A DNA stretch of 51,179 nt from Candidatus Saccharimonadota bacterium (GTDB taxonomy: Bacteria > Patescibacteriota > Saccharimonadia > Saccharimonadales > CAIOMD01). Shown here piece by piece: positions 3,937-23,212 of the stretch (position 1 is its first letter; each line of letters begins with the position of its first letter). The stretch spans positions 10,097-61,275 of the forward strand of contig DALYDK010000002.1 in assembly GCA_031973215.1 (NCBI GenBank), written 5' to 3'. A program made the translations under genes and the position numbers. The notes under the pieces are model-generated. The model had not been told where the DNA came from, did not search any database, and worked only from the letters and a program-made list of their open reading frames with translations.

Positions 3937-3972
3937 AACAAAAAGACCCTAAAAAATTAGGGTCTTTTTGTT
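3937..3972 (-). terminator. Intrinsic, probably bidirectional, terminator downstream of tRNA-Leu
   Basis: Perfect 16-bp inverted repeat aacaaaaagaccctaa-aaaa-ttagggtctttttgtt. Confidence 0.85.
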
Positions 3973-4057
3973 TGGTACGCGAGAGAGGACTTGAACCTCC
4001 ACGCCTTGCGGCACTAGCTCCTAAGGCTAGCGTGTCTACCAATTCCACCACTCGCGC
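3973..4057 (-). tRNA. trnL: tRNA-Leu(TAG)
   Basis: GCGCGAG/CTCGCGT acceptor stem, D-loop TGGTAGA, anticodon loop CTTAGGA, long variable arm, GGTTCAAGTCC T-arm, encoded CCA. Confidence 0.97.
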
Positions 4058-4077
4058 TTAAAATTGGTACGAAGAAC

Positions 4078-4106
4078 ATTGTACAGTCCGAGGCATTAAA
4101 TTTCAA
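4078..4106 (-). promoter_or_regulatory. Promoter of tRNA-Leu
   Basis: TTGAAA (4106-4101), 17 nt, TACAAT (4083-4078). Confidence 0.65.
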
Positions 4107-4923
4107 TAACTGCAGCCAAGCACGCTTGACCAATCTTTTTTCTCTTGTCTGCAAGCATTGCAGCCATTTCGAGCGTATTACTTCCCTCTTCAACTACACG
4201 TCTTATGTCTTCATAAACATTTTTATCACCCATTAGATCCGGCTTTACGGGTCCACTAAGCATAACCACCATATCACCCTCTTTTGCTTCAATTGGCGGA
4301 TGTGGTGCAATATCCACACCTTCTTCTCCCATAACTGGCATTAGAACATCTCCATCGTTATCGACATGTTCAACAAAAAGTGGTTCTATTTTTTCTTCAG
4401 CATAATCTTTAGGAACTTTAAAAGCCATGCCTTTACCGAGATTTGCTGAGACTATAAAATTTCTATGTTTTTCGCCGTCCTCAACTCGTCGAATTATTCT
4501 TACTAAAGCTGCCGAAGCAAGTGATTGAGTAATTTCTGCCGTTTGATTTTTCTGATAAATTACACTATGCGCTTGATCAATTTTTAATGATAAATTATCT
4601 ACAGCGTGAGGCAGCTCGCCTACTTCGTCTACATTGAGATATAAACCATGAGAAGATACGCTTTTAGCATGAGAAGCTGCCCAGGTGTTTTCCTCGTCCG
4701 TGTGATGAGCATGAAAAAGTCCATAGACCTCATCCCCGCCGGGTAAAGGTTTATGCAAAAATGAAATCTCATTATCTAGCGGGTTAGGACCATAAACGAC
4801 AACGGCATGCTTATCTTTTTTCTCGAAAATGCCTTCAATAGGCTGCTCTTCAGTCCAGCCGTTTTTTCTTACTTCGTGGGGCGTTAGGCCTTCTGCTAAT
4901 TTAAGTCCGCTAATTTCCTTCAA
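4096..4923 (-). CDS. Hypothetical protein, PP2C/SpoIIE-like fold with degenerate active site
   Basis: Ordered pattern YGLFHAHH / LASAALV / SANLGKGMAF / EGDMVVMLSGP / GQACLAAVIEI parallels PP2C motifs DGHGG / TT / NxGDSR / GDxxxLxSDG / DNxTxxxx. Confidence 0.5.
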   Translation of the reverse strand: MKEISGLKLAEGLTPHEVRKNGWTEEQPIEGIFEKKDKHAVVVYGPNPLDNEISFLHKPLPGGDEVYGLFHAHHTDEENTWAASHAKSVSSHGLYLNVDEVGELPHAVDNLSLKIDQAHSVIYQKNQTAEITQSLASAALVRIIRRVEDGEKHRNFIVSANLGKGMAFKVPKDYAEEKIEPLFVEHVDNDGDVLMPVMGEEGVDIAPHPPIEAKEGDMVVMLSGPVKPDLMGDKNVYEDIRRVVEEGSNTLEMAAMLADKRKKIGQACLAAVIEI

Positions 4924-4970
4924 TTAAAACTCCATTTTGTTTATTTACCAACGAGTTATTTTAATATAGT

Positions 4971-5513
4971 TTACGGTTTTTGTCTAGCTTGCTTAAGATA
5001 AATGGTAATACTGCCATCGGCATAAGACTTTTGTAATTTTTTTTCAAAATTTTCACTAATTTCAGCTAAATAATTTTTAGGCAAAGACAACACAAATATG
5101 CCACCATCTTTAATATTACGAGCCAACTTCATTAGATGATTCAAATTAATTGCATCATAAGGCGGGTCGGCAATTACAATGTCAAACTGAGTTTCAAAAT
5201 TGTGGTCGCTCCAACTAGCAATATTAGCCCGGGTAATTTTTGAATTTTTTATTTCAAGATTATTTATATTGTTCGATATTGCATTAAACGCATTTTTATC
5301 TTGATCTATAAACATTACAAAAGATGCGCCTCTTGAAAGTGCTTCAATCCCAACTGCTCCGCTCCCAGCGTATGCGTCTAGAACGGTTAAGCAGCTAATG
5401 TCACCAAGACTATTAAACAAAGCTCCCCTCATTCTTTCGCTCATAGGGTGAGTGCGATGTCCTTTAGGGCTACTAATTATGCGCCCTTTATATTGTCCGG
5501 ATATGATTCTCAT
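4971..5513 (-). CDS. rsmD: 16S rRNA m2G966 methyltransferase RsmD
   Basis: MRIISGQYKGR start, LDAYAGSGAVGIEALSRGA SAM motif, DPPY. Confidence 0.92.
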   Translation of the reverse strand: MRIISGQYKGRIISSPKGHRTHPMSERMRGALFNSLGDISCLTVLDAYAGSGAVGIEALSRGASFVMFIDQDKNAFNAISNNINNLEIKNSKITRANIASWSDHNFETQFDIVIADPPYDAINLNHLMKLARNIKDGGIFVLSLPKNYLAEISENFEKKLQKSYADGSITIYLKQARQKP

Positions 5514-5549
5514 TAGTATAGGGTAGACCTTTTATCTAGTGCGTTCAAG

Positions 5550-6371
5550 CTAGATTTCGGCGGTAGTAATTTTTGCTTCTTTGGCAGCCATAAACCAGGC
5601 AAGTGTAACAGACTTCGCCATTTTAGGTGCTAAGTCTAGCCGAACTGTTTTTGCTAATTTTGGCGTCCAGCCTCTTTTATAAAAATCATCGTACATATTT
5701 AGCAGGGCAACTTCGCGAGCGGTCCGCTTAAAGAATTCAATTAACCCTATTTGCTGAACTTTTTTTATTTCATATTTATTTGGCTCGGCTATTCTGTAAG
5801 TCATTGGAGCCATAATCATAGCTGCGCCCATCTCAAAAAGTGCATGAGTGGTAAACAGCCCTTTAACACCCCACATTTCCCAGTTTTTAGCAAATACATC
5901 TAGCGCCGAGGTTCCGGGAATAACAACTTTTTTAAAAATTGTGTCTCTTGTTTCTTTTCCCTCTCCGCGGAGCTTTTCTAGCTCTTCTTCATACGGAAAA
6001 TGATGTGCAGGCGTTAATCCGTCAACAATGGCATGCGCCAACCAGCTAGCTTCAAAAGCTGACCTTTCATGATTTTGCTCTTTTAGTGCATTAACTAATT
6101 TTTCGTAGTGAGCCATAATTTGATCTATAAGCTGACCGTCTTCTGGATCGAAGGGATCATAAAAATGCCACGGCGCATGTTCGCCGTCTAACTTGGCCTT
6201 AGCGCTATCCGGGCCATTTTTGCCTTCAAAATGCAAAATTAATTTTTTACCAGGGAAGTCTTTGTTGTTCACTAATAAATTTGAAAGAACCTTCCTGGAA
6301 GATTTATCAATTTTTTGGTGCGCACCAACAATATTGCCCGAGACATTCGTCAGGGTCGATCCTGAATACAT
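5550..6371 (-). CDS. Zinc-dependent phospholipase C / S1-P1 nuclease-fold protein, no signal peptide
   Basis: H18, D55 (GPD), H69 (WHFYDP), H113-xxx-D117, H123, H176-xxx-E180. Confidence 0.7.
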   Translation of the reverse strand: MYSGSTLTNVSGNIVGAHQKIDKSSRKVLSNLLVNNKDFPGKKLILHFEGKNGPDSAKAKLDGEHAPWHFYDPFDPEDGQLIDQIMAHYEKLVNALKEQNHERSAFEASWLAHAIVDGLTPAHHFPYEEELEKLRGEGKETRDTIFKKVVIPGTSALDVFAKNWEMWGVKGLFTTHALFEMGAAMIMAPMTYRIAEPNKYEIKKVQQIGLIEFFKRTAREVALLNMYDDFYKRGWTPKLAKTVRLDLAPKMAKSVTLAWFMAAKEAKITTAEI

Positions 6372-6395
6372 GTATTTTAAAATCCTAAGTAATTA

Positions 6396-8438
6396 TTAAT
6401 TTAAATAAGTGAGTCTTGTAGCGTTGTTAATTGACTCTGCTAATTGTTTATATTTTAACATATTATCTAATAAATTCGGGTGTTTGTTGTCATAATCACG
6501 GACTTTAGAAATTAAAACAGTGTCAGTTAATTTAGCAAATTCAAAATCTAATTTGCCATGCTGGAGTGTGCCGTAAATAGCGCCAGGACCTCTCAGCTCA
6601 AGGTCAAGTTCAGCAAGTTCAAATCCATTATTAGTCTGAAGCATTGCTCTTAATCTTTTTGGCGGAGAGCTAGAATCGCTCATTATTAAATAGCATGTTC
6701 CATTTTCAGTGCCCCTGCCTACGCGTCCCCTAAGCTGATGTAGCTGAGCCAATCCAAACCAGTTGGCATCATATATAAGCATTTCCGTTGCATTTGGCAC
6801 ATCTACGCCAACTTCTATTACAGTGGTAGAAACAAGAACCTGAATTTTACCTAAACGAAATTCATTCATTATTTTATCTTTTTCGTCTGATTTTAATTTG
6901 CCATGAATTAAACCAACTGAAAAATTCTTAAAAACCGATTTTGATAGTTTTTCATATATTGTCTCTGCGTTATTCCTGTTTGTTAACGAACTTGATTCAG
7001 TAATTAACGGGCAAACAACAAATGCTTGGCGACCCTTCTGTAGCTGGCTGGCAACACGCTCGAATACCTGATTTAAAGAATTAGGCGATACAATCTCGGT
7101 TGTAATAGTTGCTTTTCTTTCGGGAAGTTCGTTAATTACGCTTATAGATAATTCTCCATATACTGTTAAGGCCAGTGTTCTTGGTATGGGCGTTGCAGTT
7201 AAGCATAGTACATGAGGCATATTTCCCGAGCTTCTAATAATTTTTTGTCTTTGCTCGACACCAAATCTATGTTGTTCGTCTATAACTAGTAAACTTAGGT
7301 TCCTCCATGCAATATCTTTTTCTAGTAAGGCATGAGTACCAACAACTAATTTTAAGCTCCCGTGCGCAATTGAATCTTTAATTTGTTTTTTTTGTTTGGC
7401 CGGCAATGAACCAACTAAAAGACCAATATTATTAGAATAGGTGCTGTGCTCTAGAGCTTTTTGCAGAGTCGTAAAATGCTGTCTAGCCAGTATTTCTGTT
7501 GGCGCCAAAAAAGCGACCTGCTGGTCTGATTCCATGGCCATTATGGCTGCCATTGCCGCTACTACAGTTTTACCCGAGCCAACATCACCCTCTACTAACC
7601 TATTCATAGGTGAATTAGTGTTAATATCTTTATATATTTGCCAGGCGACTTTGCGTTGGCTGTTAGTTAATTTAAAAGGAAGCTTTTTGACAAAATCTTG
7701 GGCAACTTTTTCTTTAAATGTAATAACTTGGGCGGTTTCTTTTAGGGCTTCTAGCTTAAGTGCCTTTGAGGCCATGTATGAGATCAGTATTTCTTCAAAG
7801 GCCATTCTTTCTTTGGCGAATTCTAATTTTTTGTCACTGATAGGAAAATGAAGATTAGTGTATGTGTCCTGCAGAGACATCAGCTGGTTGTCATTTACAA
7901 CATCTTCTGGAAGCCTTTCCTTAATAAGATCAAAATACGGCCTGGCCTGCCCGACTATTTTTCTTATATATTCGCTTTTTAGTCCGGCAGATTCTCTATA
8001 TCTTGCAATAATTAGCTCCTCGGAACTATTAGATGCAGTATTATTGTCAATTTCTATCTGTGGGTTCATAAGCTGAAGCCTACCAGCCTGAAGCTTATAC
8101 TCTCCTCTAATTAAATAAGTATCATTTTTTAAACTATCTTTACGATAAGGCTGATTAAACCAAACAACCTTAATTATTCCTGTTTCGTCTTCTGCAATAG
8201 CTTCGGTAATGTGAAGTGCCCGACGCATTCTTTTGCTAGACACTGAATGAATTTTTGCCCTTAAAGAAACGAGCCCTGGTCGAATAGCCGAAATACTCGT
8301 AATCACAGAAAAATCATTGTAGTTGGTAGGAAAGTTATTTAGCAGATCTTCTACTGTAAATATTCCAGCTTTTTCAAACTGAGCAATCCGCACAGAGCCA
8401 ACACCCTTAAGAACACCTATTGAATCAGATAACCGCAT
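6396..8438 (-). CDS. recG: ATP-dependent DNA helicase RecG
   Basis: GDVGSGKT, DEQHRFG, TATPIPRT, QLRGRVGRG, DLELRGPG. Confidence 0.97.
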   Translation of the reverse strand: MRLSDSIGVLKGVGSVRIAQFEKAGIFTVEDLLNNFPTNYNDFSVITSISAIRPGLVSLRAKIHSVSSKRMRRALHITEAIAEDETGIIKVVWFNQPYRKDSLKNDTYLIRGEYKLQAGRLQLMNPQIEIDNNTASNSSEELIIARYRESAGLKSEYIRKIVGQARPYFDLIKERLPEDVVNDNQLMSLQDTYTNLHFPISDKKLEFAKERMAFEEILISYMASKALKLEALKETAQVITFKEKVAQDFVKKLPFKLTNSQRKVAWQIYKDINTNSPMNRLVEGDVGSGKTVVAAMAAIMAMESDQQVAFLAPTEILARQHFTTLQKALEHSTYSNNIGLLVGSLPAKQKKQIKDSIAHGSLKLVVGTHALLEKDIAWRNLSLLVIDEQHRFGVEQRQKIIRSSGNMPHVLCLTATPIPRTLALTVYGELSISVINELPERKATITTEIVSPNSLNQVFERVASQLQKGRQAFVVCPLITESSSLTNRNNAETIYEKLSKSVFKNFSVGLIHGKLKSDEKDKIMNEFRLGKIQVLVSTTVIEVGVDVPNATEMLIYDANWFGLAQLHQLRGRVGRGTENGTCYLIMSDSSSPPKRLRAMLQTNNGFELAELDLELRGPGAIYGTLQHGKLDFEFAKLTDTVLISKVRDYDNKHPNLLDNMLKYKQLAESINNATRLTYLN

Positions 8439-22303: not shown

Positions 22304-23212
22304 ATGATAAAAGAAAATACAAAGTTCATAATTGCTACAAATTTTCCAGAAGGTTCAGAAAGAATTGAATATTTAGACAAGGAGATTATTGAGCCCATAA
22401 ATCAGGTAACAAATAGCGAAACAGAAATTCTATTCATGCCAACAGCCGCCCTTATGGCCTACTCAACCTACAAGTCTGCGGGTGAAGGTAAAATTCCCAT
22501 TGTTGTTCCGGTGGGTGGCGATGGAACAATTAACTGGCACTTGAATAATGCAGATATTTACCCGCATTCTACAATATATTTACCTCTTGCTAGCGGAACC
22601 GCAAATGACATAGCTACAACTATTCATAGCAACCCAACTAATGTAAGGAAGATTCTAGAAAAAGGCCGGCTAAGACAAGCCCGACCACTAAGAATCCAAA
22701 ATGGCCCCGTGCAAAAAAAGGCACTAGGTTACATAGGTCTAGGCATTACCGGCCAGTGCGCTAAAGAAATCAATAGCAGAAAAAATGTTAAACCAAGCTT
22801 ACTTAAAGATAGCGCAGTATCAATAAAGGGAATTTTGAAAAGTAGACGCTTGAAAGTTAACAATTCCTCGCAGCCAGTTTTAAGCAGCAACCATTTAGAA
22901 ATTGCTGCAGTTAATTCTAGAATGGCCAGTTTTTTATGGCCAAAAAATCCTTCTGTGTTCGAAGACCACTTTTACTTACTTTCTCCAGAAGGATACATAG
23001 GAACAGCCGGCTTAGCTATTAAAGGTCTAAAAAAAAGATTAAAAGGCAAAAAGATTAATCTTGGCGAATCAGTAGAGTTCGAAGTTGAAAATATTGGCAC
23101 AAAAAGACGACCCATTTACGGCCAATGCGACGGAGAAGAATTTTTGCTTGAAGATAGTAAAATTAATATAAGTAAAAACAGCAGTCCTATTAATATATTT
23201 TCATTAACCTAA
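22304..23212 (+). CDS. Diacylglycerol/lipid kinase family protein
   Basis: VGGDGTIN, LPLASGTANDIA, C-terminal QCDGE. Confidence 0.8.
   Translation: MIKENTKFIIATNFPEGSERIEYLDKEIIEPINQVTNSETEILFMPTAALMAYSTYKSAGEGKIPIVVPVGGDGTINWHLNNADIYPHSTIYLPLASGTANDIATTIHSNPTNVRKILEKGRLRQARPLRIQNGPVQKKALGYIGLGITGQCAKEINSRKNVKPSLLKDSAVSIKGILKSRRLKVNNSSQPVLSSNHLEIAAVNSRMASFLWPKNPSVFEDHFYLLSPEGYIGTAGLAIKGLKKRLKGKKINLGESVEFEVENIGTKRRPIYGQCDGEEFLLEDSKINISKNSSPINIFSLT

Follow-up and report, generated by a model that had tools for sequence, protein, structure and literature searches.

The window analysed here, a stretch of 51,179 nucleotides (nt) from a Candidatus Saccharimonadota bacterium (contig DALYDK010000002.1), carries between recG and rsmD an open reading frame (ORF) at 5550-6371 that we call gene X. 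With good confidence, its product is an active, soluble, cytoplasmic metallo-phosphoesterase with the fold common to zinc phospholipase C (PLC) and the S1/P1 nucleases, and it is predicted to be a third branch of that superfamily, restricted to the class Saccharimonadia. The whole reading, in which this enzyme acts on a phosphoester of a nucleic acid or nucleotide, we hold at a probability of about 0.45. A first-pass annotation, made from the DNA letters, had placed the ORF at these positions; the ORF is there, and we add that it lies on the minus strand. All positions below are whole-window coordinates counted along the plus strand, and lengths of proteins are in amino acids (aa).

5550..6371, minus strand: gene X, a 273-aa ORF with its ATG at 6371; product soluble, basic and all-alpha, with a predicted zinc PLC / S1-P1 nuclease fold
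6360..6371, minus strand: codons of the start M1-Y2-S3-G4, in which Met1 is proposed as a main-chain metal ligand
6318-6320, gene X on the minus strand: H18 codon, read from the DNA
6207-6209, gene X on the minus strand: D55 codon, read from the DNA
6198-6200, gene X on the minus strand: K58 codon, likely phosphate clamp, from the alignment with P1 R48
6165-6167, gene X on the minus strand: H69 codon (W68/H69 in WHFYDP), read from the DNA
6033-6035, gene X on the minus strand: H113 codon, read from the DNA
6021-6023, gene X on the minus strand: D117 codon, read from the DNA
6003-6005, gene X on the minus strand: H123 codon, read from the DNA
6003..6035, minus strand: core motif H113-A-I-V-D117-G-L-T-P-A-H123, in exact register with P1 nuclease H116...D120...H126 (hhalign)
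5844-5846, gene X on the minus strand: H176 codon, read from the DNA
5832-5834, gene X on the minus strand: E180 codon, read from the DNA

Read codon by codon, the DNA encodes every residue that the annotation had named. The protein begins MYSGSTLTNVSG, with MYSG as its first residues, and the spacings H-x3-D-x5-H and H-x3-E are exact. It contains zero cysteine and six invariant Trp residues, and its isoelectric point (pI) of 8.5 belongs to a basic family (median pI ~9.1, net charge about +5 to +6). Its hydropathy shows neither a signal peptide nor a transmembrane segment (no 19-residue Kyte-Doolittle mean exceeds 1.18, and the N-terminal end is polar), in agreement with the proposal that X is not secreted.

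Fold and metal ligands of X

An AlphaFold2 model of X, built on 28 relatives, is all-alpha, with a mean predicted local distance difference test score (pLDDT) of 85.6 and a predicted template modelling score (pTM) of 0.84; only residues 1-14 lie below a pLDDT of 50. When the model was compared with the Protein Data Bank (PDB) using Foldseek, the first 23 matches were exclusively zinc PLCs, alpha-toxin N-domains or S1/P1 nucleases, with probabilities up to 1.0, which bears out the superfamily proposed from the letters. The PLC branch (clostridial alpha-toxin N-domain, Bacillus PC-PLC and Listeria PC-PLC) reached E-values down to 7e-4 and template modelling (TM) scores of 0.54-0.57 on the query, and the nuclease branch (S1, TBN1 and AtBFN2) gave E-values of 0.1-0.6, TM scores of about 0.41-0.44 and probabilities of 0.6-0.93. 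Matches ranked under this set are noise, and no viral structural relatives of the model were found.

Sequence searches place the family below the thresholds of both parent families. Protein X itself has no match in Pfam, NCBIfam or PADLOC, and none in the PDB when searched directly as a single protein or as a profile. It gives no match to PF00882, the zinc PLC family, even at E <= 1 (gathering threshold 26.8 bits), and a six-frame PF00882 search of the window's genome found none; PF02265, the S1-P1_nuclease family, matches neither X nor its genome. Relatives of X match PF00882 weakly, at 14.9-25.0 bits and all under the 26.8-bit cut-off, in 18/28 and 19/35 cases, and PF02265 in 5/28 (best E 0.046, below its threshold of 29.5 bits). 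More than 3,900 relatives remain at 90% clustering, all annotated as hypothetical and chiefly from Saccharibacteria. Because 50% clustering leaves just 199 representatives, the family is narrow.

The eight side-chain ligands that the annotation had listed are all present and hardly vary among homologs. Across 247 distinct full-length relatives, down to ~21% identity, D55, H113, D117 and H123 are found in every one; H18 and E180 (Glu as the last ligand) are each retained in 246, H176 in 245 and H69 in 236. Judged from these sequences, the ligand pattern is far above chance.

Several relatives depart from the common architecture. Two of them, P0152 (365 aa) and P0156 (453 aa), carry a long, low-complexity insert rich in Ser, Pro and Thr just ahead of the helix that follows the H69 region; relatives of this type also have strongly basic C-terminal tails, such as KRRRTTRQKRSHYRGRRGQE. 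P0183 (245 aa) is a fragment whose first 140 residues resemble a signal peptide followed by a low-complexity region, joined to an X-like domain that begins after the helix of the first His; an assembly artefact could explain it, as could a secreted or chimeric form.

Comparison with the nuclease and phospholipase branches

We aligned X with P1 nuclease by hhalign, using a P1 sequence that is 100% identical to PDB 1AK0. For PC-PLC we keep the ligand numbering of the first-pass annotation. The X core WLAHAIVDGLTPAHH aligns with P1 FLVHFIGDMTQPLHD, so that H113/D117/H123 correspond to H116/D120/H126; the extended alignment pairs D55 with D45, K58 with R48, and H69-F70-x-D72 with H60-F61-x-D63. 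Five ligands of X (D55, H69, H113, D117 and H123) are thus in P1 register. Owing to an insertion of ~50 residues in X (124-175), the alignment gives no position for the first His or the final H-x3-E pair; H18 and H176/E180 were assigned by order, spacing and invariance.

The alignment also recovers two features of the nuclease type, a basic residue at Asp+3 (K58) and an aromatic residue at His+1 (F70). In P1 nuclease R48 (Lys68 in S1) contacts the phosphate, and the Phe at His+1 stacks the nucleoside (PMC5201275). K58 is retained in 223/227 close relatives, all class members, and not in distant ones. Compared on an equal footing, the profile of X gives a score of 23.2 with P1 nuclease and of ~17 with a pair of cytoplasmic PF00882 proteins from sister genomes. 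We therefore treat X as a third branch that is neither clearly PLC nor clearly nuclease, about equally distant from both.

The likenesses and differences are otherwise as follows. With the S1/P1 nucleases (PF02265; P1 1AK0, S1 5FBA, TBN1, AtBFN2 and SmNuc1) X has in common the all-alpha fold, the H-x3-D-x5-H core in register, and equivalents of Asp45, His60-Phe61-x-Asp63 and Arg48. Those enzymes are secreted, periplasmic or vacuolar, whereas X is cytoplasmic, lacks their processed Trp1, disulfides and glycans, spaces the third-metal ligands by ~53 residues instead of 23, and has an additional C-terminal helical bundle. Its final pair is H176-x3-E180, where P1 has His-x3-Asp. X is also a housekeeping gene in a recG operon, unlike the S1/P1 nucleases, and the gene at the same position in Southlakia, a cultured relative, is essential.

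The zinc PLCs (PF00882; Bacillus cereus PC-PLC 1AH7, Listeria PC-PLC 8CQM and the alpha-toxin N-domain 1CA1/1KHO) are the best structural matches to X. On the ligand list that we adopted for PC-PLC, the D55...H69 spacing (14 residues) and the final H-x3-E agree. The known zinc PLCs are secreted pro-enzymes that need a free Trp1, whereas X starts Met1-Tyr2 and has neither signal nor propeptide (for the PLCs, PMC10576769); X is a near-universal core gene of an epibiotic class, not a virulence factor like them. A 2023 paper gives Bacillus and Clostridium as the sole known sources of homologs, and reports that the equivalent of D55 is needed for activity in Listeria PC-PLC and has been proposed as the general base in the Bacillus enzyme (PMC10576769).

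By analogy with these enzymes, a mechanism can be outlined. Three-metal, hydroxide-mediated phosphoester cleavage with Asp as the base is the chemistry of S1/P1 nucleases (PMC5201275), and would be expected for X. Three divalent metals, by analogy zinc as in the P1/S1 nucleases and PC-PLC, would cluster in X; a metal-bridged hydroxide, placed by D55, would attack the phosphoester in line, while K58 at Asp+3 would clamp the phosphate. The likeliest substrate would be RNA or DNA in single-stranded form, or else nucleotides or ends that carry a 3'-phosphate; cleavage would leave 5'-nucleotides or clean 3'-OH ends, serving RNA turnover or processing, or nucleotide supply. An X that yields nucleotides would suit the organism because it cannot make them: Saccharibacteria are without nucleotide synthesis (PMC10633639), and a 2026 preprint makes the case that host RNA serves Patescibacteria as food.

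The N-terminus and a proposed ninth ligand

Methionine aminopeptidase leaves Met in place before bulky residues. Since position 2 of X is aromatic, Met1 is probably retained. The family supports the regularity of this end of the protein: the first His is at position 18 in 133/160 relatives, and in this group position 2 is Tyr, Phe or Trp in all but one (132) and the start is MYSG or MYAG in 117; of 227 close relatives, 222 have Y, W or F as the second residue. The M-[Y/F/W]-[S/A]-G start thus appears nearly invariant in the family.

In the known enzymes, the N-terminus is part of the metal site. In S1 nuclease the ninth ligand comes from the main chain of the Trp at the mature N-terminus (PMC5201275), and the W1 main chain of Listeria PC-PLC binds metal 3 (PMC10576769). 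In the Listeria enzyme, activity survives W1 substitution only in W1F, a single residue added before W1 abolishes it, and the loop following W1 is disordered in the crystal (PMC10576769). The canonical Trp1 ligand, which the annotation had listed for PC-PLC, has no counterpart in X, which starts Met-Tyr-Ser-Gly without a signal or propeptide.

In X, the retained Met1 probably replaces Trp1 as the main-chain metal ligand. The deformylated initiator Met1 would supply an amine and a carbonyl, and the aromatic residue 2 would be kept partly to block Met excision, so fixing the register. One distant relative, P0215, has a signal-peptide-like stretch ending ...PATA and then a Trp exactly 17 residues ahead of the first His, which is the same register as Met1 of X. 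Weighing against a Met1 ligand are the pLDDT of below 50 over residues 1-14 and the differing N-terminal lengths among distant relatives.

Distribution and loss of X

We now turn to where the gene occurs. In a phylum sample of 401 genomes X was found in 21, every one a member of the class Saccharimonadia; none of the ~376 Patescibacteria genomes outside the class has it. Within the class it is present in single copy in 265/301 genomes (230/260 among the high-quality ones), and the gene occurs in at least 587 GTDB species representatives, nearly all labelled Saccharibacteria or Saccharimonadales and one labelled Limnocylindrales.

The losses are clean. Several families and genera have lost X, and one genus is mixed, some of its genomes keeping the gene and some lacking it. 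In 12 of 13 X-lacking class genomes viewed, recG directly abuts rsmD, and no remnant of X was detectable at the empty recG-rsmD sites of the 13. X is therefore a clean presence/absence polymorphism within an older recG-rsmD pair. The recG-rsmD gap of one genome (L028:2031-2623, genome G573) holds an unrelated GC-rich ORF whose small product has a signal peptide, MRKQLIGLVLVGVAAMLALTGVASA...; insertions may recur at this junction.

Two candidates to replace the lost gene were considered and set aside. No canonical S1/P1 nuclease (PF02265) that could stand in for X was found in 26 class genomes tested. A 213-aa cytoplasmic protein of the PF00882 family (MPSWNIH...; 28 bits, above the cut-off) is encoded at L048:1276-1917 on the minus strand (genome G519), and also at L051 and L052; the 3' end of its gene overlaps the start of fpg/mutM, and a holA-like gene is next. 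This paralog occurs in 4 genomes of one genus, none of them among the genomes matching X, and as a replacement it is too rare and too phylogenetically clustered to count. In Southlakia, the gene ahead of fpg encodes a HAD-family phosphatase. A further genome (G635), which also carries X, encodes a 320-aa protein (MPNLLTH...) without a signal peptide at L047:1042-2004 on the minus strand, with a PF00882 score of 41.8 bits; its gene adjoins a small membrane protein gene and an SDR-family gene. Together with this protein, cytoplasmic members of the PLC family are sporadic in the class.

The gene at the same position is essential in Southlakia epibionticum

Saccharibacteria live as epibionts on other bacteria, and one cultured relative, Southlakia epibionticum ML1, has been made genetically tractable and subjected to transposon sequencing (Wang et al. 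2023, Cell; PMC10633639). Its gene SEML1_0504, a 'hypothetical protein' of 807 bp and 268 aa, sits between RecG (SEML1_0505) and RsmD (SEML1_0503) (PMC10633639, Table S1), and beyond RecG lie TyrRS and a PBP, as in relatives of the window (PMC10633639). From its position, length and fold we infer that SEML1_0504 is almost certainly the ortholog of X; it has the same position and strand logic, and a similar size (268 vs 273 aa). Table S2 of that study labels it 'Zn dep PLPC domain-containing' (ProtNLM) and, by ECOD, 'Phospholipase C/P1 nuclease' (DPAM 0.996); it is absent from the main text, where its essentiality and fold are undiscussed (PMC10633639).

The published counts single out this gene from its neighbours. 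The hidden Markov model (HMM) calls for SEML1_0504 are ES/ES/ES, with 30 insertions and 36 reads in the input DNA (raw) and, after normalisation, 16/184 at T0, 1/0.7 at T1 and 0/0 at T2 (PMC10633639). RecG is called NE/NE/GD (T0 83/3,293, T1 89/1,000, T2 60/405) and RsmD NE/NE/NE (T0 15/587, T1 24/846, T2 22/410) (PMC10633639). SEML1_0504 falls among the 61 class I essential genes, which are depleted already at T0 (PMC10633639). Polar effects cannot account for this because the downstream genes are dispensable, and the essential role is not RecG-dependent repair, since recG is dispensable where X is essential.

Operon and synteny

Gene X is the second of four co-directional genes, whose other members and end are listed here.

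6396..8438, minus strand: recG (NCBIfam equivalog, 746 bits), the first gene; its stop lies 24 nt upstream of the X start
4971..5513, minus strand: rsmD, 16S rRNA m2G966 methyltransferase (PF03602, 5e-40), the third gene; begins 36 nt past the X stop
4096..4923, minus strand: fourth co-directional gene, 275 aa; 47 nt after rsmD, probably co-transcribed
3937..3972, minus strand: strong hairpin terminator, a 16-bp stem followed by a T run

With gaps of 24, 36 and 47 nt and a single terminator, recG, X, rsmD and the 275-aa gene look like one operon; its end is set at 3937..3972 because this is the sole convincing terminator downstream of recG on the minus strand. RecG upstream and RsmD downstream are both co-oriented with X, and the placing of X between them is as first described. 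The 275-aa gene (4096-4923, minus strand) has no Pfam, NCBIfam or PADLOC match, and its place is not conserved, Southlakia carrying an Lnt-like gene there.

Across the class the linkage is tight. recG immediately precedes X in 78/79 and in 23/23 loci, and rsmD immediately follows it in 67/69. Conservation of X exceeds that of RecG in 75/77 loci and that of RsmD in 73/77. The synteny suggested for checking across Patescibacteria holds within the class for recG; outside it, of five distant relatives, only L024, 25% identical to X, keeps recG upstream, with a ComEA-like gene downstream, and the four others stand in unrelated gene contexts. X has no PADLOC match that would give it a role in a defence system.

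Which phosphoester does X cleave?

The first-pass annotation had offered an intracellular nuclease or phosphodiesterase, or lipid scavenging, as alternatives, and our preference among them is slight. Several observations count for a nucleic acid or nucleotide as the substrate. The neighbours are recG and rsmD, and the L024 relative combines recG with a ComEA-like gene. In sister genomes without X, the 213-aa protein of the PLC fold is encoded by a gene that overlaps fpg. Finally, K58, F70, the basic character of the family and the profile score of 23.2 against P1, compared with ~17, are all of the nuclease type.

A number of points weigh against this reading. The PLC branch outscores the nuclease branch in Foldseek (E 7e-4 vs 0.1), and more relatives match PF00882 (18-19) than PF02265 (5). 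H18 and H176/E180 were left unplaced in the hhalign comparison with P1, and the last ligand is Glu, as in the PC-PLC list that we adopted, and not Asp as in P1. The recG linkage may go back to one ancestral insertion that operon inertia has held in place. X is cleanly lost in ~12% of the class, including part of a genus that otherwise keeps it. None of recG, xth, fpg, ung and comEC is essential in Southlakia, and gene context therefore fails to account for the essentiality of X; the orthology of the essential gene is itself drawn from its place, its size and its fold. Lastly, the metal content, activity and substrate of X are all predicted by analogy.

Some specific nucleic-acid roles can be narrowed. 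Endonuclease IV (Nfo) is a three-zinc intracellular phosphoesterase of TIM-barrel fold whose targets are DNA 3'-blocking groups and apurinic/apyrimidinic (AP) sites; it offers three-zinc DNA-end cleaning chemistry in the cytoplasm, but its fold is unrelated to that of X. The idea that X is simply a missing AP endonuclease or DNA 3'-phosphatase was rejected because Southlakia has ExoIII, Fpg, UDG and MutY, and these base excision repair genes are all non-essential. comEC can be deleted in Southlakia (PMC10633639), and DNA uptake is therefore not the essential nucleotide source.

The strongest alternative, which we regard as possible and less probable than action on nucleic acids, is that X works inside the cell as a phospholipase C or as a phosphodiesterase of lipid head-groups, cleaving host phospholipids at the inner leaflet so that the diacylglycerol (DAG) can be reused, for example by glycosyltransferases, in a lineage unable to make either fatty acids or phospholipids de novo. 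The nearest structural and Pfam matches belong to the PLC branch, and the Glu at the last ligand position agrees with the PC-PLC list that we took over. Essential lipid remodelling is plausible because Saccharibacteria are without fatty-acid synthesis (PMC10633639), and the six invariant Trp residues and the basic surface would suit interfacial binding; no membrane-binding domain or hydrophobic segment is present in X, however, and K58 at Asp+3 and the adjoining DNA/RNA genes point elsewhere.

Genomic context gives this alternative mixed support. A distant relative from the candidate phyla radiation (CPR) shares a compact operon with a DAGK_cat/YegS lipid kinase. This relative, 24% identical to X, heads a four-gene run at 4001-8393 on the plus strand of L043 and L044 (GCA_001818775.1 and an ENA contig), followed by an M17 leucyl aminopeptidase, the DAGK_cat/YegS lipid kinase and a class V aminotransferase, the last three genes overlapping by 4 nt. 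Within the class, however, DAGK_cat does not co-vary with X (7/13 X-bearing vs 6/13 X-lacking genomes), and a pathway of PLC plus DAG kinase is thus unsupported. DAGK_cat is patchy in the class (13/26 genomes tested), and the window itself has a DAGK_cat match (PF00781, 36 bits) at about 22439-22693 on the plus strand (G000:C2:32535-32789), in an ORF of ~306 aa.

The phosphatidate cytidylyltransferase family CdsA (PF01148) was also compared with X. In one genus, g6, strong CdsA matches occur in 10/11 X-lacking vs 1/7 X-bearing genomes (Fisher p = 0.0025); but the anticorrelation is absent outside g6 (23/258 X-bearing vs 0/25 X-lacking), and the g6 signal may be one evolutionary event. Strong CdsA matches are found in only ~34/301 class genomes, and separate ORFs of ~180-200 aa match CdsA profile positions 169-231 only, which suggests a truncated or different family. 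Southlakia, moreover, has neither a DAG kinase nor a CdsA in its annotation, and none of its lipid genes (PLD-like, GDPD, CDP-alcohol transferase and Lnt-like) is essential.

An unlikely alternative is that X is a phosphodiesterase or phosphomonoesterase of small molecules, such as glycerophosphodiesters, cyclic or linear dinucleotides, pAp, 3'-nucleotides, nucleotide-sugars or CDP-alcohols. Here the ~50-residue insertion between H123 and H176 and a C-terminal helical extension of ~70 residues would shut the cleft to polymers and membranes. Both the insertion (124-175) and the extension (~199-265) are family-specific additions, compared with canonical enzymes of ~245-270 aa, and S1/P1 enzymes do have 3'-nucleotidase activity (PMC5201275); a restricted substrate is also attractive because a non-specific cytoplasmic nuclease or PLC would be dangerous. 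This architecture is nonetheless the sole positive point, no context gene indicates a particular metabolite, and GDPD and an oligoribonuclease exist in Southlakia and are non-essential.

Least probable is that X is exported without a classical signal, for example by type IV secretion, to attack membranes or nucleic acids of the host, or is a catalytically dead structural protein: canonical relatives act extracellularly and X has no signal peptide, but effectors are usually fast-evolving and in accessory loci, and X is single-copy, in a housekeeping operon and more conserved than RecG and RsmD, while the strict conservation of all catalytic residues argues against a dead enzyme. Saccharibacteria need their type IV secretion system for epibiotic growth (PMC10633639), and X is essential in co-culture; its class I depletion already at T0 is, however, like that of core functions.

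Significance

The fold assignment is not new, since it is already in a published supplement (PMC10633639) and in automatic UniProt names. What is new is that X is a distinct, sub-threshold intracellular branch restricted to one class, with an architecture of its own: 50 residues are inserted, the C-terminus is extended, and the N-terminus begins at Met1. It is also a slow-evolving core gene whose same-position counterpart is essential in a cultured relative, and has nevertheless been cleanly lost in ~12% of lineages.

The enzyme touches the open question of how Patescibacteria (CPR) build membranes and nucleic acids without biosynthetic pathways, as its fold predicts phosphodiester cleavage of lipids or of nucleic acids, both classes being obtained from hosts. 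A wider proposal, to which we give odds well below even, is that Saccharibacteria depend on X because it converts imported RNA or single-stranded DNA (to 5'-nucleotides), or host phospholipid (to DAG), into building blocks by way of an active site with Met1, retained through the aromatic residue 2, in the place of Trp1; such a site would be a previously undescribed route to this chemistry in the cytoplasm. X function is approachable by a few assays in the existing genetic system of Southlakia. As it stands, X extends a superfamily of secreted toxins and nucleases to an intracellular housekeeping role, and suggests a new solution for the N-terminal metal ligand, Met1.

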